Shown in pieces: positions 6,274 to 17,765 of a stretch of DNA of 64,000 bases (positions within the stretch are counted from its first letter, which is position 1; the number at the start of each line of letters is the position of its first letter). This DNA is from Prorocentrum cordatum (Eukaryota), in contig CAUYUJ010000314.1 of the NCBI GenBank assembly GCA_963575745.1, forward strand, positions 434,001 to 498,000. Reading direction: 5' to 3'. The translations under genes were made by a program, and so were the position numbers. Under the pieces are notes generated by a model that searched no databases, was not told the DNA's origin, and saw nothing but the letters and a program-made list of their open reading frames with translations.

Positions 6274-7195
6274 CCCGTTTTCGCCCACTTGATCGCCGCC
6301 CACATCATCGCGCGGAGGGGTGGGGGGTTCTCAGGGGCATCTCGATCTTCGCTCGCGTCGTGGGGAAAAGCACGGAAGTCAGAGGTAAAGTTTTCGACCC
6401 CATAGTTTGACCTCTGACTTTTTCGGCGGAGGGGGGCCCCTGCAGGCAAGGCCCACCTACCCATGGGTAGTTCCTCTCGCTCCCGTTCCTCCTCCGTTCC
6501 TCCTCCCCCTCCTCCTCCTCCTCCCATTTTCGCAGTCGCCCTCCTCATCACCTCTTTCCCAATTCGTGTTCGTCCTGGTCAGCCTCCGCCCCAACTCCTC
6601 GCCCTCCTCACTCAATTCCCCGTTGGCCCAACTACTTATTTAAATAAGTAGTTGACTCAACTACTCATTTCTCAAGAAATGAGTAGTCCAGCGTTTGGGC
6701 GAGCAATGTGACACCACATATGAGGAGTAAAACGCGTCTCAAATCCAACCTCCTTGTTGCACCATGCCGAGCACTCCATGCCCCTGGACCCCTTTTTGCA
6801 ATGCAGGGAGCAGCAGAACACGGGTGGCGCTGCATATGAGGAATAAAACGCGTCTCAAATGCAGCCTCCTCGGCATGGTGCAACAATGAGGTTGCATTTG
6901 AGACGCGTTTTATTCCTCATATGCAGTGCCACCCGTGTTCTGCTGCTCCCTGCTTTGCAAAAGGGGTCCAGGGGCATGGAGTGCTCGGTATGGTGCAACA
7001 AGGAGGTTGCATTTGAGACGCGTTTTGTTCCTCATATGTTGTGTCACATTGGGCGAGCGTCGTCGCCGGAATCACTCATCCCGCGATGTCGCCCAAGACA
7101 GTTATGTTTTGAGTATGGTTTCCTTTTCTGGGGCGTCTCGCAAAAAATAAGGTGTCTCGTTTTCTTGGTCTCATATTTAAGGGCGTGAGCCGCTT
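6274..7195 (+). repeat. Left long terminal inverted repeat
   Basis: Reverse complement of ~15440-16383. Only scattered mismatches from ~6354 to 7186; near-identical mirror ORFs appear in the track (6665..6886- vs 15764..15985+, 6463..6651+ vs 15999..16184-). Confidence 0.95.
6705..7050. mobile_element. 346-bp foldback with 8-bp flanking direct repeat GGGCGAGC, inside the left TIR
   Basis: ~164-bp arms aatgtgaca...gcagcctc / gaggttgc...tgtcacatt with a 19-nt loop; GGGCGAGC at 6697-6704 and 7051-7058. Confidence 0.8.
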
Positions 7196-8624
7196 CGGTT
7201 TGGTGGTAGCACAGTTTTATGCTAGGGGTGCGCGCTTCGTTTTTGCTCTACCTGGGTACTTCTATGTTGTAGCTTGTAATATTCCAATATTCCCAGGCTG
7301 GCTTGTTAATGTCTTCACACGCCACTTGCCCGTTGGGACTGCGGTAGATTGGGGAGGGGTTTTGCCGAAAGGGTGTTTTGATTTCCGGAGGCAGTGGGAC
7401 TGACCCTGTCTCGCCCTTGAGGCCCTCCCGGAGATTGATCCGGGAGGCGGGAATCAACCCACTTTTTCTGCAGAATATGGAGGAGGAGGAGCAGCATGAT
7501 GATGAGGGGTATTGTGAGGAGTGACAAGGAAAGGTCGGGGAGGGGGGAGTTCGCACAACATTCTGGACAAATTCCCAGTAATGATTTGGTTTTATCAGTT
7601 TCGCAGATTCTTCTTTTTTTTTGAAGCAGGAAACGCTCGCAAATTTTCAAAAATGTGTTTTTGAGGCGTCTGCACATTGACGCCGCGAAACCACTTGTCA
7701 CGCCCATGGGTTTAAGGTATCCGCTTCGCTTTGCGAGGCTGTTAGTTTTACCAGGCCTTGACTGGTGGAAACGTAAGCGCGCTCACGACGCACGGGCGGC
7801 ACGCCGCGGGCACACCACCAGCGCACCAAGCACACAAACGCACAGACACACACGCACACGCGGAGACATGCACGCGATTTGTACGAAGGGTCTGTGTGTT
7901 TTCCGTGTGCTGGTGGGGCGTATTCGGCAGACGAGGTTGGAGGAAAAACTTGTGATCTTCTTAAGCAAGAAACGCAAGTTTTCCTCCTCCACAGCGCTGG
8001 AGTGGCGTTGCGTGCCCGCGGCGCGCCAATGTGCCTGGCGTATTGGTTTGCCTGGAATGCTTGGGTATGCTTGGGTGTGCGTGATATGCCTGGTGTGCCC
8101 GGTGGTGTGCCCTGGTGTGCTTGGTGTTCCCTGGTGTGCACTGGTGTGCCTGGTGTGAATGGTGTGCTTGGAGCGCCTGGTGCGCCTGGTGGGCGAAAGG
8201 GGTGAGGATGAACGCAATAATGTAATCTTACATTTTTGATTTTCTCTGCGGTTCGAGGGAGGAGGAGTAAGGATGAGGGAAGCAACAGGAGAGGGAGAAA
8301 TTGGCAGGAGGCAACGAGGAGCGATGCGTGGAACTAGCGACAAGAGTTAAGGGGGGAGTACAAACACAACAATGTATCTTTACAGTATTGCTTTTCTTTG
8401 CGGCTTACTGTGACTTTCCGGATTGAGTTAACTCAGTAATTTAATTGCACGGTGATCTTGTGTTTCAGTATTTGAACAACCCAGTAAGTCAACGATGCAG
8501 TAATGCAGTGAGGCAGTGATTCGTCCATCAAGGAATCCACTAGACCTCCGACCAATTCAACCTCCGACGAATTAAGTAATTCATTTACTGGATTGGTCAA
8601 CCCATCCAAGACAAGTGGCAAGGC

Positions 8625-8663: not shown

Positions 8664-9515
8664 ACCCCCCGTGCGGGCTCACATGTTGTATTAAGTTGCT
8701 ATTGGGCCCCTGAGAGTGCACCACACAGACACTAGGGACATCCGCTGTCTGCGTTCCTTCCTTCTTCCCATGCTTTCGTTTTCGCCGAAACCTTGACGAG
8801 TAGCAGTAAGGGTGAGTGAGGATGACGAGGAGGAGGAGGAGGAGGAGGGAGAGAGCAAGAGTAGGGAAGAAGATGGTGAGGGACAGCTCCGAGATGGCCT
8901 CCAATCACAGGCAAGAGCGAGAACGTAAGTTTACATTCTTGCTTTCCTCATTCCTTCCACCCACCTGTCCCCTCCCCCACGCCTCCGTCTTCCCTTCCCT
9001 CCTCCGTGCTTCTCATGCCTGCTCATGCTCCTTCCACCTACTCCAAACTTCAACTACTCCCCTCCTCCCCCCTCCAACCGTAAAGAGAAGCAAGACTGCA
9101 CATGTACATTACTTCTTTTTTGCTACTTCGTTCGACCCCCCCATCTTGGGCTCAAAGTGGCCATCTTCTTGGTACCACCACTTGGGCAATATTGCGCCAT
9201 CTTGGCGGCCATCTAGAACAGGAGCGGTCTTGAAGTCATTTTGGCATATAGTGGTGTGGTGCAGAGGCTACTCCCATGGGAAGCATGTAGTATGCCCTGG
9301 AAGCCCGCTTCCCTATACTGTTTCAGTGGGTCGTGGCCTTGCGAGCGCGGAAGTATTTGTTTCTAGGAAGGATCGCGGCCTCGGGAGCGCGGGTCCATAG
9401 TATTTCTTGTGTGCCACATGGCTCCACGAGGGGGGGGGGGGCGTTCGGGCGAAACTCTTGTACGGGATTCGGCACATATGATGATGATGATGCTGTTGCT
9501 GATGATGCTGCGTAT

Positions 9516-9538: not shown

Positions 9539-9587
9539 AAGGCTGGCTCCATGTTGATTTGATTCCGAACCTTCATAATCACCGGCC

Positions 9588-11038
9588 ATGGGAAGAAGCA
9601 CCCAACAATCTACGTTTACACCCGAACTAGTTCGCGACATTCTGTCAACACATATTCGAGGTTCGGCTGTAAAAAGATGCCAAGAGAATGGCAAGTTGAT
9701 TGACTACAAATTCAAGGCGGTTGGAAGGGGTAGCGACGACGAGGACAAAGAGAAAGAGCTCACAAACGAGACAGACAAAGACTGCCTGCAGAGGCATTGT
9801 GACTTATTGCGGGCAATGTTCAAGTACACAAAGATCTTCAACAAAGACACGCTCGAGGCAGGCGTCAAACTATACAGCAATGAAAAGGTCGGCGGCATTG
9901 TCAAGGACCCCAAGGCAGAGGCATACGCTATCAAACGTATGCAGATTGACATCCAGAGGATCAGAGGGAATTGCAGGACAGGCTCACGTTTGCAGTCCTG
10001 GCTTTCGTCCAAGCCTACGGGGAAGCGCCGACAACGCTCAGTCCATCGCCCTCGCCGCCGCCCGCTGGCCGAACCACCCCAGGCTCAACAGCTAAAGGCT
10101 CGCTCAGCGGATCGAGCATGAAACAGGCCACGAAGTCGTTGATTCGGGAGTGTGATAGCGATTCAGAGGAGGACGACACGGTGGACTGCGACGAGGGCGA
10201 TTGCGCGGTCCTAGGTGCGGTTCGCAAGCATGGCGACGACCACGCGAAAAGCTCCGGACACGGAGCTAAGCAACCACCCCTGCATGCTGACGGCGCCGAC
10301 GATATGGGTGCATCTTTCCAGCCTGTGTTCTACTGGGATCATGCCCAAAGTACCGGTATGGCTACGTTGCAGGACGGGAGCGCACAGAAAGCTGACGCTG
10401 TGTATTGCGACGCACTCTCGGGCATGGTCGCGTGCGAGTTCCTGTTCGACGAGCGGGAGGGCAGCACGAAGTGGGTCACAGAGATCCCGTGGTTGGATTA
10501 TTTGCCACGCTCAGGTTTGCACCTGCGTTGCGTTGGTCTGCGATTGGCGATGGCTGGCCCTAGTGTCCCAGGGCCCCAGGACACATTGGATACCCCCAAA
10601 CACGAGGACTATTGCATTGCCCAAAGAAACGGCCACTCCACACGAAACGGCCCTCGAGGCCACGCGGGCGGGGCCCCGCCAGACCAGGGCAAAATCGCAG
10701 CCTCTTGATTTCGGTGACTAGTGGGAGGGGCGAGTGGGGATGCCAGCCATCGCCATGCGCAGCGCATCAACGCAGTGGCAAACGGGGAAGGTGGCGCAGC
10801 CTCGAGGACTGCAACACTCCGGAGGCCCGCGGCAGCGAGGGCAACAACTCTTCGGAGGCCAGCAGCATCGTCCGTTCTTCGGAGGCCAGCTGCCACCTCG
10901 CGCCAGTGGACGGTCAAGACGATCACGAGGGGCGGCGCGGATCGCAAGAGGGGCCAGACATACAATATATGGACGTCGCCTGGCGGAGTCTCATACAGGT
11001 CGCTGAAGAATGCAGTGGCGAATGGGTTTAGGCCGTAG
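9588..11038 (+). pseudogene. Transposon gene A: unknown N-terminal domain, LRRPAA repeats and C-terminal MBD-like motif; apparent frameshift near 10000; GT-AG intron 10515-10721
   Basis: ORFs 9588-10121 and 9971-10708 read as protein-like in consecutive frames. The phase-1 intron tcag|gtttgc...gactag|tggga joins ...DYLPRS in frame to VGGASG...; the C-terminus is WTVKTITRGGADRKRGQTYNIWTSPGGVSYRSLKNAVANGF. Confidence 0.65.
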
Positions 11039-11504
11039 GGTTCAGTAGGCGCCAGAGTACGCGTCCTTGCTGTGTAGATCTCAGCTCGCGTTTGCACGTC
11101 TCAATCACGCTACGACTCATTGATATGTGGACACTTGCGCTGCTATGGAGTTCCTGGCGGCTTCTGTGAGAAACGTGCATCGGTCTCCTCCTCTCCCCCT
11201 CCCCCCACCGTCCCTCCTCCCTCCTCCCAGGGCGCAGTCGGCGCCTGAAACTATCTGAAACTTTGTAGTTTCAGACAGCGCTTTCCGCGATGAGAAACAT
11301 TGGTTTTCATTGACAGTTCCATACAAAATGCACATTTGTAACATGCAGCGTTGAAGTTTCAGATCTGAAACTCTTCTGAAACTCTGGCCCTCGGGATCCC
11401 GCACGGCGTCTCGGCGACCCCGCTGCGGCCTTCCGCGCAGCCCTTTCGCCCCGAGCTGGCGCGTTCAGGTTTCCTACACTCCATACCTGCGCTGGCCACC
11501 GAGC

Positions 11505-12754
11505 ATGGCAAAGCAGGTGCCTCGCAAGACCCCCCAGAGCGCAAAGATGAGGAGGCCGGCTGCAGCTTCGGCGACGGCAGTGGTGCCGCACGAGAAGACC
11601 GACGCAGAGAAGAAGGGTTTGGACCGCCTGGCCGATCTAAAGCCAGGCCAACCCCTGGGGCAGGCAGGGGCGCAAGCAGTCACGGACCACTTGAAGCGCT
11701 TGGCCAAGGACGGTTGGGAGTTTCCCCTCCAGGAGTGGAAGAACACCAAGAGCTACGAGGCGAAACGTTCCTTGGCCGTCAAGCTGGCGCTGGACAGGGC
11801 CGGGTCATTTTTCAAGCAGATCGAAGAGCAGTCCCTGACGAGTCGGAGCCAGAAGGCGATCAAGAGCGGATGGCTCCACATCTGGGAAGTCGCTGACTTG
11901 GAGAAGTTCCCGTGCAACCCAGAGAACGAGGCGACGATGCAGAAGCTGTACGACTTCGTGGAGGGCTGCCCCACCAGGGCTTCTGAAAAGCCTGCTTTGG
12001 CCAAGAAGGGCGAGCTGCAGTACGACTACTCGAAGAGGATGGTGGACAACCACGTATCCGAGCGCAGGAAGGCTATCACCGTCAAGGGCACGAAGGACAA
12101 GGTCGACGCTGGAGAGGTCAACGACTCGATCGCTCTCATGGACGACGACTTCGTCGAGCAGCCCGTCCACAAGAAGGCGAAGAAGGCGAAGGTCCCCAAG
12201 GCGATCGAGGACGAGAAGCCCGAAGACAAGAAGTTGCGCGAGGCTGGGGATTGCGTTGAACTGCGCCGCTGTGGCCCTGCTTTCTCGGAGTGCTCAGGGG
12301 GCTCAGCTTGGTTCCGGCCGCGCGCGCTGGAACGAAGCTTCTGCCTGGGCTCATCCTGGGAATGCGGTGTCGCAGATGCGTGGCCGACGCCATCTCGCAG
12401 GCAACGGCGGAGAAGGCGAAATGGATTTCGTCTTACACGTCGCTGAAGACCAAGGTCGGAAAACAGACCGACTTGGCGGAGAAGCTGCAGGCGAAGTACG
12501 ATTTGGTGAAGGACAAAAAGAAAGGCACTCTCGTCACGGCGAAGCTCGTGACCCAGATGTGGTCGCAGTTGTCTACGCTGCAGGCCAAGAAGGGCAAGAT
12601 GGCGCGCTTCATCGAGGATACCAGCGCCGTGGACCCCCTCAAGTGGGCCAAGAACAAAGCGAAATACGACAAAGAGTTCAAGGATTGCGAGTCTGCCCTG
12701 GACACCTTCACCGAGGGGGCCGTGTCCCTCGTGCAGAAGGGGTTGACCAATTGA
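11505..12754 (+). CDS. Transposon gene B: ~363-aa K/E/A-rich helical or coiled-coil protein of unknown function; exons 11505-12242 and 12401-12754 (GC-AG intron)
   Basis: Strong GC3 codon bias. Splicing gag|gctggg...ctcgcag|gcaacg joins KKLRE to ATAEKAKWISSY in frame (phase 0) and removes the non-protein-like segment. Confidence 0.8.
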
Positions 12755-13091
12755 GCGGGCTCGGCGCGCGCTGACTGCCGTGGGAGGCGGCGAGAGACAG
12801 AGACAGAGACAGGAAGGCAGACAAGGGAGAGAGAGAGAGAGAGAGAGAGGGTGTCGCATCCTGTTCAGGGTCGGGCTCGGGGCGCGTGCCATGGGCATGC
12901 TCGCAACCATCCTATTGGCTTTTTTGTTTGGAGGGGGGCGCCGGCGGCGCGTCTGATTGCGTGACTGGGTAAATGTGAGCGCGTGCCTGCCAGATTCGAG
13001 AGGGGGCCCCTCCGCTCCTGTTTCTGCTTGTATTCCTTATAACAATCGTCGCAGCGCGTGCCTCTGGCAACTGTCGCCCATTCAGCTTTCG

Positions 13092-13113
13092 CCCATAGCC
13101 GTTTTGGCTCGAG
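13092..13113 (+). other. Degenerate DinoSL-like sequence upstream of the transposase
   Basis: cccatagccgttttggctcgag matches DCCGTAGCCATTTTGGCTCAAG at 18/22, ungapped; the next in-frame ATGs are at 13131 and 13245. Confidence 0.65.
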
Positions 13114-13244
13114 CCTGCATTGCGGATCGCATGTATCCCGGGACTGGGCACAAACAGCGAGCCGCGCGCACAGCCGATGGGCCATATGGCAAGCACTCGT
13201 GCGACACCAGATGCAGGCCAACGGGGGGCTCAAAGCAACATGTC

Positions 13245-14999
13245 ATGGACGCCCGCGCCGTCGCAATTGCTCGACCATCCAGCGCGGCAGCTACGCCCGC
13301 CAGCAGCTCGGCCCCCAGCGATGCGGACATCAGCGATTACAGATCCCATTTGAGTCGGCTCTTCCTACGCAACAAAATGTCTGCCCTGGATGCCCAGCTC
13401 CTGGCTTCGAAGTCGAGTCAAGCTGGGGCCAGAGGAGTCGATGATTTTGCAAGGGTTGGTTCCCGTGGAGCCGAGCCAAAGAATATGTGTCGGGACATGC
13501 TGAGGGCGTGCTTGAAAGGAACAGACATGCCCGACTTGTATTGGGCGAAAGTACCGTGCTGCAACCCCAAGACGGGCATCAAAAGAGAGGATGTGTGGAT
13601 GCCATTTCTCCTTCCTCACGAGCTGCTACATCTGCTCGTGCAGAAGGCTGGGGAATCGTGGGGCGACCTCTGCTCCGTGCCTTCAGGGCTCGAAGCGCTG
13701 CGAGCCGAGGTCACGCGCGGGGCGCCGCATCTGTCGGGCGGGCACTTGATTTGCATCGGCTTCCACGGCGATGGAGTGCCCCATCAACGACGTAAAACAG
13801 TCGAGGTATATAGTTGGAATGTGTTGGCTTTCCCATCGTCGGAGCGTTTTCTTTTCGCAATGGTTGAAAAAGAATTCATGTGTGGATGCGGGTGCAAGGG
13901 GCGATGCACAATAGATGGCATTCTCGATATATTTTTGTGGAGTCTCCGGTGCTTGTACATGGGCCAATTTCCTACCTCGCGGCACGACTCGTTGGAGTGG
14001 CTACCGTCAGACAAGAGCCGGGCGAAACTGAAGCATGGCAGAGATTTTGGATTCCATTCAATATTGTTGCAGATCCGAGGAGATTGGCAATTCTACAAGA
14101 CGATATTTGGATTCAGCGGCTGGGCATCCAAATCAATTTGTGGGCTCTGCGGGGCCACGCAGCCAGATGGCGATAAGCCGTACAACGATTTCAGCATCCA
14201 AGCAGCGTGGAGAAAATGCAGACACAACGTGCGCGATATGCTTAGCATCCTCAGCAATTCAGGGGTCCCTTTGAGCCCCCTCTTCGGGGCGCCGTGCTTC
14301 CACGCGATCATGCTCACAATTGATGTCCTACATTGCTTGGATCTGGGCGTCTCTCAAGATATACTTGGGAATTTGTTTTGGGAGGCTATCGCATCGAAAG
14401 GTTTCTTCTCAGAGACGACGCAGGAAAAACGAGTGGACCAGTTGCTCCTTCTCGTCAAGGAGCATTACAAAGAGTGCCGCACTCCTGTTCGCGTGAATGG
14501 TTTGACTCTGGAGATGATTAAAAGGCAATCAAAATCACCCAAATTTCGCGCGAAGGGGGCGGAGACTCGATACATGGTTCCATTCGGATTGTGCTTGGCA
14601 GAGAAGATGCACGAGTTCCACGGCACCGTCCATTCGCTCACTGTGCTGGAAATGTTGAGGTGCTTGTTTCTTTTCTACACGACAATGGGCAATGATGTAT
14701 ACGATGCTGATCGTGCAGCAAGCTCGTGTCGAAAGTGTCTGCTGCTCTATAAATCGCTCTCTTCCGAAGCCAAGAACAAAGTTTTTTGGAAGTGCAAACC
14801 AAAAATGCACATGTGGCAGGAGATGGCAGAATACATGGGGACAGTAATCAGCAACCCTCGGCTCTTCTGGGCATACAAAGACGAAGATTTCGTCGGTTTC
14901 ATCAGCGAGCTAGCCCATTCGAGAGGCGGTGGTGGCATGAGTAGCACTGTCCCTAGAGTTGCAATTACGAGGTACAGGGCCCTGGGAGGGGCCACATGA
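13245..14999 (+). CDS. DDE transposase, CMC (CACTA/EnSpm/Mirage)-like, 584 aa from ATG 13245 (alternative in-frame ATG 13131)
   Basis: Uninterrupted ORF with FHGDGVP (D, 13770), QIRGDW (D, 14082), CxxC (ICGLCG), IDVLHCLDLG, KPKMH and NPRLFWAYKDEDFVG (E, 14883), in the order expected for CMC transposases. Confidence 0.8.
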   Translation: MDARAVAIARPSSAAATPASSSAPSDADISDYRSHLSRLFLRNKMSALDAQLLASKSSQAGARGVDDFARVGSRGAEPKNMCRDMLRACLKGTDMPDLYWAKVPCCNPKTGIKREDVWMPFLLPHELLHLLVQKAGESWGDLCSVPSGLEALRAEVTRGAPHLSGGHLICIGFHGDGVPHQRRKTVEVYSWNVLAFPSSERFLFAMVEKEFMCGCGCKGRCTIDGILDIFLWSLRCLYMGQFPTSRHDSLEWLPSDKSRAKLKHGRDFGFHSILLQIRGDWQFYKTIFGFSGWASKSICGLCGATQPDGDKPYNDFSIQAAWRKCRHNVRDMLSILSNSGVPLSPLFGAPCFHAIMLTIDVLHCLDLGVSQDILGNLFWEAIASKGFFSETTQEKRVDQLLLLVKEHYKECRTPVRVNGLTLEMIKRQSKSPKFRAKGAETRYMVPFGLCLAEKMHEFHGTVHSLTVLEMLRCLFLFYTTMGNDVYDADRAASSCRKCLLLYKSLSSEAKNKVFWKCKPKMHMWQEMAEYMGTVISNPRLFWAYKDEDFVGFISELAHSRGGGGMSSTVPRVAITRYRALGGAT

Positions 15000-15439: not shown

Positions 15440-16383
15440 AAGCGGCTCGATTTCAGAATTCGAGACGCCCTTAAATATGAGACCAAGAAAACGAGACACC
15501 TTTTTTTTGCGAGACGCCCCAGAAAAGGAAACCATACTCAAAACATAACTGTCTTGGGCGACATCGCGGGATGAATGATTCCGGCGACGACGCTCGCCCA
15601 ATGTGACACAACATATGAGGAACAAAACGCGTCTCAAATGCAACCTCCTTGTTGCACCATACCGAGCACTCCATGCCCCTGGACCCCTTTTGCAAAGCAG
15701 GGAGCAGCAGAACACGGGTGGCACTGCATATGAGGAATAAAACGCGTCTCAAATGCAACCTCATTGTTGCACCATGCCGAGGAGGCTGCATTTGAGACGC
15801 GTTTTATTCCTCATATGCAGGGCCACCCGTGTTCTGCTGCTCCCTGCATTGCAAAAAGGGGTCCAGGGGCATGGAGTGCTCGGCATGGTGCAACAAGGAG
15901 GTTGCATTTGAGACGCGTTTTACTCCTCATATGTGGTGTCACATTGCTCGCCCAAACGCTGGACTACTCATTTCTTGAGAAATGAGTAGTTGAGTCAACT
16001 ACTTATTTAAATAAGTAGTTGGGCCAACGGGGAATTGAGTGAGGAGGGCGAGGAGTTGGGGCGGAGGCTGACCAGGACGAACACGAATTGGGAAAGAGGT
16101 GATGAGGAGGGCGACTGCGAAAATGGGAGGAGGAGGAGGGGGAGGAGGAACGGAGGAGGAACGGGAGCGAGAGGAACTACCCATGGGTAGGTGGGCCTTG
16201 CCTGCAGGGCCCCCCCTCCGCCGAAAAAGTCAGAGGTCAAACTATGGGGTCGAAAACTTTACCTCTGACTTCCGTGCTTTTCCCCACGACGCGAAGATCA
16301 AAGCGCCCCTGAGAACCCCCCACCCTCCGCGCGATGATGGTGATTACAGCGATGTGGGCGGCGATCAAGTGGGCAAAAACGGG
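15440..16383 (-). repeat. Right long terminal inverted repeat
   Basis: Reverse complement of 6274-7195. Confidence 0.95.
15600..15945. mobile_element. Same 346-bp foldback inside the right TIR, flanked by GCTCGCCC
   Basis: Mirror of 6705-7050; direct repeats at 15592-15599 and 15946-15953. Confidence 0.8.
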
Positions 16384-17569
16384 CAGTCGCTCTCAATTCC
16401 TCGTTCCCCTAACACGTAATTGTTTTTTCATGCTTTGCGCAATCGAATAAACTTACGTTGTGGTCATCTTCTGAGATGGCTCAAAAGTCCCCCAAATCTA
16501 CCGCGTTCGAAAGGTCGCGGGGCGGGGCGATAAATCTGGTTCGGTGGCTTCTATCGGGGCCCCATGTGGGGTACGTCGCCGGCGGGCGGGTCGCTGGGCG
16601 GGCCGCGAGCGGGGCGCGACGGATCGTAGGACGACGACGAGCAAAAATAACAACACTGACCCCAAATGGAACAAACCCTTATGACGTGGCCAACGAAGCC
16701 GCAATTCAGCCGCTCGCGGCGGTCGCGGGGCGTGTCGATAAGATAGCGCCTTGGATTTCTATCGAGGTCTCCTGCGAGGCGGGGCGCGGGCGGGCGGGGC
16801 GCTGGGCGGGTCGCGCGTGCATTGCGGCGGGGCGCGGGGCGAGGATCGCGAATACCAGTAACAACAACGACAAAATTAAACACCGCATCACTGAAGCCAG
16901 ACGCGCACCCAGGGACAGTGTAAAGACGTTCGGCCTCGTCAACCAGATCTCTTATCTCTAGGTTTGAGGGTGGTGATGCACGCATAGGAAATGATCTCCA
17001 AAAAATAACAGCGGCGCTCCTAAATTTAACCGATCTCACTTAAATAACAAGATATAGGCAACAATAACAAGAGATTTCTCCTAAAAGCTGCTCTTAAATG
17101 CTTCGCACCACTTAGATCTAGACTATTCGGCTGCTTCCAGCCGCAGCGGATGGTCGGGGTTGCCAGTAATACCGTTCGGCCAATCACTCTGCTGGTTCGA
17201 ATTTGGTTTGCGCGCAAGTGCATTGTTACGATGTCAAAGTGGCATGACTGGCAATACTGTCAAAAAACAATGCTTCAAGTGCAAGAAATGCACTGTCTCA
17301 GCGAGGGCTTTTCCGACGACATGGTTTCGTGCTTTTGCCGGCTAGATTTTCTGAACGCCGGGCTGAAAACTAGACTGCGGTCTAGAAAACTGAACTGCTA
17401 GGAGGTGGTTTTGCACTTGCCGGGCATCTGTGTCACCAAACAGCCCGCTTTCGCTACCAATCCGGCTACTTCCAACACTTCCGGCGAAGAAACAAAACTT
17501 CCACCCGATAAACAACACTTGCAGACGCAATCGGATTAGCGCTCCGGGCCCGCCGTTGTTTTTTCCGAC

Positions 17570-17765
17570 CCGATCCTCCTTCTCGACCCTCCTGCTCGAC
17601 CCTCCTCCTCGATCCTCCTCCTCGATCCTCCTCCTCGATCCTCCTCCTCGATCCTCCTCCTCGTCCTCGTCCTCCTCCTCCTCCTCCTCCTCGATCCTCC
17701 TCCTCCTCCTCGATCCTCCTTCTCTCTCTCCTCCTCCTTCTACTCTTCCTTTCCTCCTTCTCCTC
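17570..17765. repeat. (CTC)n / CGATCCTCCT low-complexity repeat
   Basis: Direct reading. Confidence 0.9.

Follow-up and report, generated by a model that had tools for sequence, protein, structure and literature searches.

A divergent, predicted MBD-like module at the C-terminus of a transposon-borne protein, a candidate CpG-reading head

Mobile elements equipped with readers of host DNA marks are rare, and the one worked example is an arthropod retrotransposon. In the CopiaMBD elements of arthropods a methyl-CpG-binding domain (MBD) binds methylated CpG-dense DNA and has been proposed to guide integration; MBD capture by a mobile element is already in print for arthropod Copia (PMC6673714), and CopiaMBD is cited as such a capture in a preprint (bioRxiv 10.1101/2021.11.30.470311). 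In Symbiodinium, CG hypermethylation is the default state, and dinoflagellate retrotransposons carry DNA methyltransferases (DNMTs), according to de Mendoza et al. (2018; PMC5890265). Here we describe gene 1 of a DNA transposon with terminal inverted repeats (TIRs) in a 64,000-nucleotide (nt) stretch of Prorocentrum cordatum DNA (contig CAUYUJ010000314.1), called the window below, whose numbering is used throughout. The last exon proposed for this gene (10722-11038) is read as encoding the C-terminal module of a transposon-borne protein, made of LRRPAA repeats and a short MBD-like domain (mini-MBD), which is most likely a CpG-reading DNA-binding head; we put the probability of this reading at about 0.6.

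The window element resembles CopiaMBD in being a mobile element that carries an MBD, here a predicted one. However, CopiaMBD is an animal long terminal repeat retrotransposon whose own polyprotein contains a canonical MBD of host origin (PMC6673714), whereas the window element is a TIR DNA transposon with a divergent predicted mini-MBD in a separate gene and belongs to a dinoflagellate-like genome. The dinoflagellate DNMT retrotransposons are likewise mobile elements with parts of the cytosine-methylation toolkit, but they place writers in retrotransposons, whereas the window shows a putative reader in a DNA transposon. A further system of comparison is En/Spm of the CACTA type, a two-protein transposon whose accessory protein TnpA recognises a 12-bp CpG-containing motif, repeated in both orientations in long subterminal regions, with an interplay between binding and methylation. 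TnpA is not an MBD, and recognition by the window protein of AAAACGCGTCTC, a motif repeated in the inverted repeats of the element, is proposed by analogy and as a hypothesis only. A literature search by title and abstract, with most subscription journals outside it, found among the papers listed no dinoflagellate MBD, no MBD-bearing dinoflagellate transposon and no Transib element of this kind. If the reading is true, a cut-and-paste transposon with a reader-like domain would help to explain how transposases find DNA in a genome with CpGs methylated by default and unusual chromatin, and a small MBD family missed by Pfam would join the candidate readers of DNA modification in protists. Because the module has only about 45 residues, binding assays with 5-methylcytosine (5mC) and 5-hydroxymethyluracil (5hmU) would be cheap.

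The open frame 10718-11038 on the forward strand translates as ...TLRRPAAARATTLRRPAASSVLRRPAATSRQWTVKTITRGGADRKRGQTYNIWTSPGGVSYRSLKNAVANGFRP, and the C-terminal sequence behind the repeats is QWTVKTITRGGADRKRGQTYNIWTSPGGVSYRSLKNAVANGFRP, followed by the stop. The original prediction had described the last exon as three LRRPAA repeats and then this sequence, and exactly three repeats are indeed found, with starts at 10817, 10850 and 10877. When the 105-residue (aa) tail was compared by phmmer with 1.84 billion representative proteins, 12 matches at E ≤ 0.001 were obtained (best 7.5e-09), and the repeats together with the C-terminal module are common to ten of them (P0064-P0068 and P0070-P0074). 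P0069 and P0075 were dropped from the family as sequences without the module, P0075 being an internal repeat protein. The ten relatives have one to four repeats of the [LM][KR][KR]PAA type followed by GW.v.T..RG....G..Y..W..P.G..[YF]RS...AV..GF, in which W, R, G, Y, G, A, G and F are invariant, and they are 35-42% identical to the window across the exon, with no stop or frameshift. Counting the window, the family has 11 members, eight of which end no more than three residues after GF. The N-terminal parts of the ten relatives gave no match to the rest of the window and are unrelated, suggesting that repeats plus domain form a module found on different proteins. Further searches added nothing new: a search for longer proteins with the tail as query gave no match, and the family alignment as query returned four proteins, all already known.

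The repeats themselves point the same way. In the six frames of the window [LMIV][KR][KR]PA[AS] occurs four times, always inside the element: three of these lie in the tail, and the fourth is MRRPAA (11547), close to the N-terminal end of gene 2. In 100 second-order Markov simulations it occurred 0.41 times on average and never more than 2 times. On the sequence comparisons given here, the tail module is a conserved unit, beyond chance.

Several lines of evidence connect the module with the MBD. The family profile, compared with 177,635 Protein Data Bank (PDB) sequences, gave 21 matches at E ≤ 10, 19 of which were MBD2, MBD3, MeCP2 or Arabidopsis MBD6 (best E 0.042). With a profile trimmed to the module, 21 of 24 matches belonged to the MBD family (best E 0.013, 18.8 bits), and the remaining three were one lectin, with two entries, and a protein that binds chitin. 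All printed profile alignments, to MBD2 and AtMBD6, have one register, in which GW lies on GW, the invariant Arg matches that of IRKSG, and P.G..YRS falls on PSGKKFRS. In the ESM Atlas, which is based on a protein language model, the three best clusters carry PF01429, with a score of 0.85 and 177 of 256 features in common; by its calibration such a score favours a true relative and counts as a lead only. Two of the 12 members touched DUF7028, which shares an ESM Atlas cluster with MBD.

The predicted structure agrees with these comparisons. An AlphaFold2 model of the module, made from a 12-row alignment, had a predicted local distance difference test score (pLDDT) of 82.7 and showed two strands (residues 11-16 and 27-32), then a bridge (38-39) and, last, a helix (42-47). 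A Foldseek comparison of AlphaFold's model of the tail, a check named in the original prediction, bore it out for the predicted fold: MBD domains (MBD1-4, MeCP2 and AtMBD5/6) stood at every rank from 1 to 35 among the PDB matches listed, with E 0.04-0.8, probability 0.72-1.00 and a query-normalised template modelling score of 0.52-0.69, and with a root-mean-square deviation (rmsd) of 1.2-1.3 Å over 38-40 columns for 6cnp_B and 7feo_B. VIA-align, which is independent of Foldseek, put AtMBD6 at the top of 48,161 chains (Z 4.6, rmsd 1.9 Å, 42 residues aligned), and its first four rows were AtMBD6, MBD4 and MBD2 twice (Z 3.7-4.6, rmsd 1.9-2.1 Å, 42-45 residues); double-stranded RNA-binding domains (dsRBDs) came next, at Z about 3 and rmsd above 4 Å. 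Because several lines agree on one family and one register, the tail is, judged from these models and profiles, very probably a homologue with the MBD fold. Like canonical MBDs (PF01429; MBD2, MeCP2, MBD4 and AtMBD5/6), it has a predicted strand-strand-strand-helix wedge, a GW start, a first Arg finger, an SP.G loop and a helix that begins with [FY]RS. Unlike them, the window module has about 42 residues, has no C-terminal hairpin and falls under the Pfam threshold, and modules of its type always follow [LM][KR][KR]PAA repeats and stand at the very C-terminus in most members.

A number of results weigh against the proposed reading; they concern the statistics of the fold assignment, the recognition residues, the splice joint, the upstream frame, the related loci and the ends of the element, and are taken up from here on together with the alternatives that they favour. 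As to the statistics, the tail tried as 105, 52 or 46 aa gave no match to Pfam MBD at E ≤ 10, so that the HMMER check against PF01429 named in the original prediction came out negative. Two of the 12 members touched PF01429 below threshold (P0070, E 0.0076, 16.3 bits; P0074, E 0.045, 13.8 bits), and the best score of the relatives is thus under the gathering score of 21 bits. The tail alone matched only crotonyl-CoA reductases in the PDB by phmmer (E about 1), no Foldseek match reached E ≤ 0.001, as can be expected for a query of only 52 residues, and the best VIA-align Z of 4.6 is low on that scale. No single MBD test reaches conventional significance. The interpretation in the original prediction is supported in part: by profile, Atlas, AlphaFold, Foldseek and VIA-align the tail is very probably a divergent MBD fold, in a gene between the inverted repeats of a real DNA transposon, and its role as a reader of modified DNA is a hypothesis.

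The same borderline values (sequence E 0.013, Foldseek 0.04, VIA-align Z 4.6) favour an alternative in which the likeness is due to convergence or chance, the tail being another class of strand-strand-strand-helix DNA-binding domain or a new fold drawn towards MBD by AlphaFold. Small classes of this topology include AP2/ERF-like and integrase N-terminal-like domains, and Z values of about 3 are attained by dsRBDs and further small alpha/beta domains. However, four kinds of evidence converge on MBD in one register, no AP2 or integrase N-terminal domain is among the fold matches listed, Pfam AP2 matched neither the tail nor its relatives, and the rmsd is 1.2-2.2 Å to MBDs and more than 4 Å to dsRBDs. 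Convergence or chance is regarded as very unlikely.

With regard to DNA recognition, we take R111 and R133 of MeCP2 to be the first and second arginine fingers, and D121 and Y123 to be the Asp and Tyr of methyl-CpG reading. In MeCP2 and MBD2 the first arginine is held in place by the Asp, while the Tyr makes a water-mediated contact to the methyl group, and loss of Asp/Tyr in MBD3-like proteins leads to weaker methyl preference. The original prediction had stated that both arginine equivalents are present and that the Asp and Tyr of DVYY are replaced, and the HMMER alignments agree on both points. In them ITR coincides with the first arginine of the MBD, and SPGG..YRS with SPSGKKFRS; the first finger aligns to the Arg of IRKSG in MBD2 and is Arg in all 11 members, and the second (YRS in the window, 10994-11002) aligns to FRSK of MBD2 and is Arg in nine, with Lys in one member and Pro in another. 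In the alignments the invariant Tyr of the family falls on the Asp of DVYY, and a variable residue (I, M, T or E) on its first Tyr; in the window this residue is Ile in the alignments to MBD2 and AtMBD6. Since the two arginine fingers are kept, binding to CpG DNA can reasonably be expected, and it is on balance probable from the sequence that the module binds DNA. That it prefers 5mC or another modified base is doubtful.

The replaced Asp and Tyr positions favour an MBD-like fold that reads no DNA mark but binds DNA or RNA regardless of methylation, or a protein partner. Mammalian MBD5/6, SETDB and BAZ2 TAM domains behave in this way (in part PMC6673714), TAM and SETDB2 MBD structures are also in the fold lists, and the module is shorter than the canonical domain of about 70 aa, ending right after the helix in most members. 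Against this, the SP.G loop is conserved as well as both fingers, and by structure the module matches the DNA-bound MBD2, MBD4 and AtMBD5/6 best, not TAM or SETDB. We regard this alternative as unlikely.

The layout of gene 1 is given in Table 1. From the sequence we infer a splice joining 10514 to 10722: GT stands at 10515-10516 and AG at 10720-10721, and removal of the 207 nt between joins the frame of open reading frame (ORF) 9950..10708 to the tail in phase. The interval is itself in frame with this ORF and contains two in-frame stops. Because Met is absent from the tail frame, only as a downstream exon could the tail be translated. An intact copy of gene 1 would encode about 416 residues, in the order of a part with no recognised fold, an acidic Cys-containing stretch, the three basic LRRPAA repeats and the mini-MBD. 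The upstream, N-terminal parts matched no Pfam family and no PDB sequence below E 0.1, and showed no likeness to gene 2. The acidic stretch with spaced cysteines, at 10100-10220 (+), reads CDSDSEEDDTVDCDEGDC and may serve as a small segment for metal binding or for acidic interaction.

Table 1 Features of the element, in window coordinates
Feature	Position	Strand	Remarks
Left inverted-repeat arm, near-perfect part	6353..7186	.	Weaker similarity with indels outward to about 6007
Four AAAACGCGTCTC copies, left arm	6729..7026	6729, 6845 (+); 6900, 7015 (-)	Two nested palindromes
Gene 1, first open stretch	9588..10004	+	Begins at first ATG of ORF 9579..10121; frame lost at 10004 in the window
Gene 1, second open stretch	10007..10514	+	Frame of ORF 9950..10708, to proposed donor
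Proposed intron, GT..AG, 207 nt	10515..10721	+	Inferred; in-frame stops 10706-10708 and 10715-10717
Last exon of gene 1 (proposed)	10722..11038	+	Includes stop TAG at 11036-11038
Three LRRPAA repeats	10817-10834, 10850-10867, 10877-10894	+	Members of conserved [LM][KR][KR]PAA repeat
Predicted mini-MBD core, QW...GF	10904..11029	+	Profile alignments and predicted structure
Predicted mini-MBD residues	10928-10930; 10961-10963; 10997-10999	+	Arg finger 1; invariant Tyr; Arg finger 2
Gene 2	11505..12446	+	MRRPAA at 11547; open frame 12260..12754 maybe its continuation
680-aa DDE transposase ORF	12957..14999	+	RAG1/Transib-like predicted fold; residues 1-116 disordered
Four AAAACGCGTCTC copies, right arm	15624..15921	15624, 15739 (+); 15794, 15910 (-)
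Right inverted-repeat arm, near-perfect part	15465..16294	.	Weaker similarity outward to about 16654

Near-identical element DNA was found in contigs of four other runs (X2, X3, X4 and X11), and no joint at 10515/10721 was seen in them. The contigs across 10515 or 10721 (X3, 10277-10527 and 10658-10977; X2, 10590-10921; X4, 10638-10859) are colinear with the genome and are unspliced genomic DNA. These results, the missing Met and a frameshift upstream are compatible with a last exon that is not expressed as proposed, being unspliced, attached to another upstream exon or a dead relic. The identity of the intact exon to its ten relatives, on the other hand, shows that it codes or did so recently, GT and AG are present in the right phase, and the one indel seen between copies here, a missing nt at 10684 in one X3 contig, lies in the proposed intron and not in the exon. 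That the exon is not expressed as proposed is quite unlikely.

The upstream frameshift is read from a difference between copies. In X4 and X2 contigs, seven extra nt behind 10004 join ORF 9579..10121 to ORF 9950..10708 with no stop; as the window copy is without them, its frame would shift and translation would stop at 10121, well before the tail. The window copy of gene 1 thus probably carries a 7-nt deletion, to judge from the sequence, and is broken upstream of the tail, and it is doubtful that the gene is functional in this copy. The tail exon shows no difference in the three contigs of X2, X3 and X4 that extend into it, each covering part of the exon; in X11, a run only tentatively labelled as RNA, a 275-nt contig (10936-11210) has Thr instead of Pro as its last codon (11033 C>A), and nothing on expression is concluded from it.

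The neighbourhood of transposase relatives was compared in the best 80 (265 kb) of 345 metagenome stretches that encode them. The tail was absent from these related loci: a hidden Markov model (HMM) of the module gave no match at E ≤ 10 among 5,303 ORF translations, and ORF A, ORF B and the tail of gene 1 gave none by tblastn. The pattern [LMIV][KR][KR]P[AST][AS] had two weak matches in 379,913 residues, which is no enrichment, and 33 larger ORFs flanking the transposase gave nothing above threshold in Pfam and no reader domain. Most loci are short: in 13 of the 80 the sequence upstream of the transposase match extends for at least 2.6 kb, the distance needed if the arrangement is as in the window, and among the seven loci with gene 2 there are three in which more than 1.2 kb precedes the gene 2 match. 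Gene 1 would thus at most be an addition made in one lineage of the element, and it may have been captured from the host.

These comparisons bear on a possible but rather unlikely alternative, in which gene 1 is a captured passenger, a host gene or fragment brought between the inverted repeats by transduplication, without a role in transposition and already a pseudogene here. It is favoured by the presence of gene 1 in none and of gene 2 in seven of the 80 loci, by the occurrence of the module on at least ten proteins with unrelated N-terminal parts, by the 7 nt that the window copy lacks relative to X4 and X2, and by three ORF B differences between runs, all at second codon positions, which come from single low-depth contigs and are maybe errors. 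It is opposed by the unchanged tail exon in the contigs of X2, X3 and X4, and by [LM]RRPAA, which also opens the conserved gene 2 of the element and fits a use common to the element's proteins. Moreover, the transposase relatives in the related loci are only 28-55% identical and the loci mostly short, so absence from them says little about close relatives.

The near-perfect arms of the inverted repeat are about 0.83 kb long and 98-99% complementary (pieces of 658 nt at 98%, 169 nt at 99% and 44 nt at 98%), or about 1.2 kb with the diverged outer part. Together with the model of a DDE (Asp-Asp-Glu) transposase, they indicate a real DDE transposon. By eye, neither a clean target-site duplication nor a CAC terminus was recognised at the fading arm ends. 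Gene 1 lies between the inverted repeats and beside the transposase, and the label of accessory gene that it had been given is fair by position. The motif AAAACGCGTCTC, whose core is the palindrome ACGCGT, occurs eight times in the window against 0.18 expected, a count reached in none of 100 shuffles.

In the proposed reading, the mini-MBD would be a domain of about 42 residues with three strands and one helix at the protein C-terminus, gripping CpG steps via the two arginine fingers. The basic LRRPAA repeats might provide a nuclear import signal, extra DNA contacts or both; KRPAA resembles the first basic cluster of the nucleoplasmin signal. If CG is methylated by default in the host, CpG-dense sites, including the eight ACGCGT cores, would offer methylated DNA to the protein. 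Two uses are ranked high: the element's own subterminal ACGCGT repeats could be recognised on methylated DNA, as by TnpA of En/Spm, or the protein could be tethered to CpG-dense target DNA, as in CopiaMBD. Target choice, anti-silencing and binding of the TIR motif by the module, all put forward in the original prediction, are hypotheses; reading of 5hmU is possible, and nothing in the analysis favours it. A broader scenario, in which a mini-MBD family behind KRPAA-type repeats exists in dinoflagellate-like protists, one member was recruited by a RAG1/Transib-like transposon as the DNA-recognising head of its accessory protein, to find its own ACGCGT repeats or targets on DNA methylated or 5hmU-substituted by default, and the invariant Tyr marks an altered base pocket adapted to the chemistry of dinoflagellate DNA, is a long shot.

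The transposase is a second point of interest: its family is large, Pfam has no model for it, and the predicted fold is like RAG1/Transib. Its AlphaFold model (pLDDT 80.9, predicted template modelling score 0.78) had 49 matches in the PDB at E ≤ 0.001, all of them RAG1, BbRAGL (an amphioxus RAG-like protein) or HzTransib of Helicoverpa (E 7.4e-09 to 1.9e-04 over about 600 columns), followed by the P element transposase (E 4.3e-03). The 680-aa ORF is, however, only 9-14% identical to RAG1, and its element has arms of about 0.83 kb instead of short TIRs; Transib has short TIRs starting with CAC and a 5-bp target duplication. The nearest named ESM Atlas clusters were Plavaka (0.90) and RAG1 (0.87). 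No Pfam or PDB sequence match was found for the ORF and no Pfam domain in its 63 protein relatives, some of which are named in their source as Alexandrium andersonii or Symbiodinium sp.; further relatives are encoded in the 345 metagenome stretches. Candidate catalytic residues in invariant columns are D272, D376, D456/D462 and E643. The family may be an undescribed dinoflagellate branch of RAG1/Transib-like or CACTA/Plavaka-like transposases. Viral contigs contained no relative of the transposase or the tail.

Relatives of gene 2 were found upstream of the transposase in seven of the best 80 loci (L011, L022, L027, L035, L038, L065 and L076), with 24-33% identity in the longer matches, and gene 2 therefore looks like a conserved partner gene of the transposon family. 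It belongs to no known family, and Pfam gave nothing above threshold.

Each arm of the inverted repeat contains two nested palindromes (6704-7051 and 15599-15946), with 93-nt and 79-nt arms that are 95-96% complementary and each include AAAACGCGTCTC; these could form large cruciforms or hairpins. A 40-nt AT-rich palindrome with the centre ...CTACTTATTTAAATAAGTAG... lies outside the motif cluster in each arm (6622-6661 and 15989-16028). The observed/expected ratio of CpG is 0.94-0.98 in the element genes and 0.81 for the window, which decides nothing. Simple tracts of ATG repeats, GAG/CTC-type repeats and a C-rich run stand at 9478-9511, 7752-8027 and 11193-11228; at such tracts, contigs that are not related raise the word depth in all four runs, up to about 150,000, and element depth is unusable nearby. 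A 13-nt tandem array of TCCTCCTCCTCGA-like units occupies 17540-17760, just beyond the right arm.

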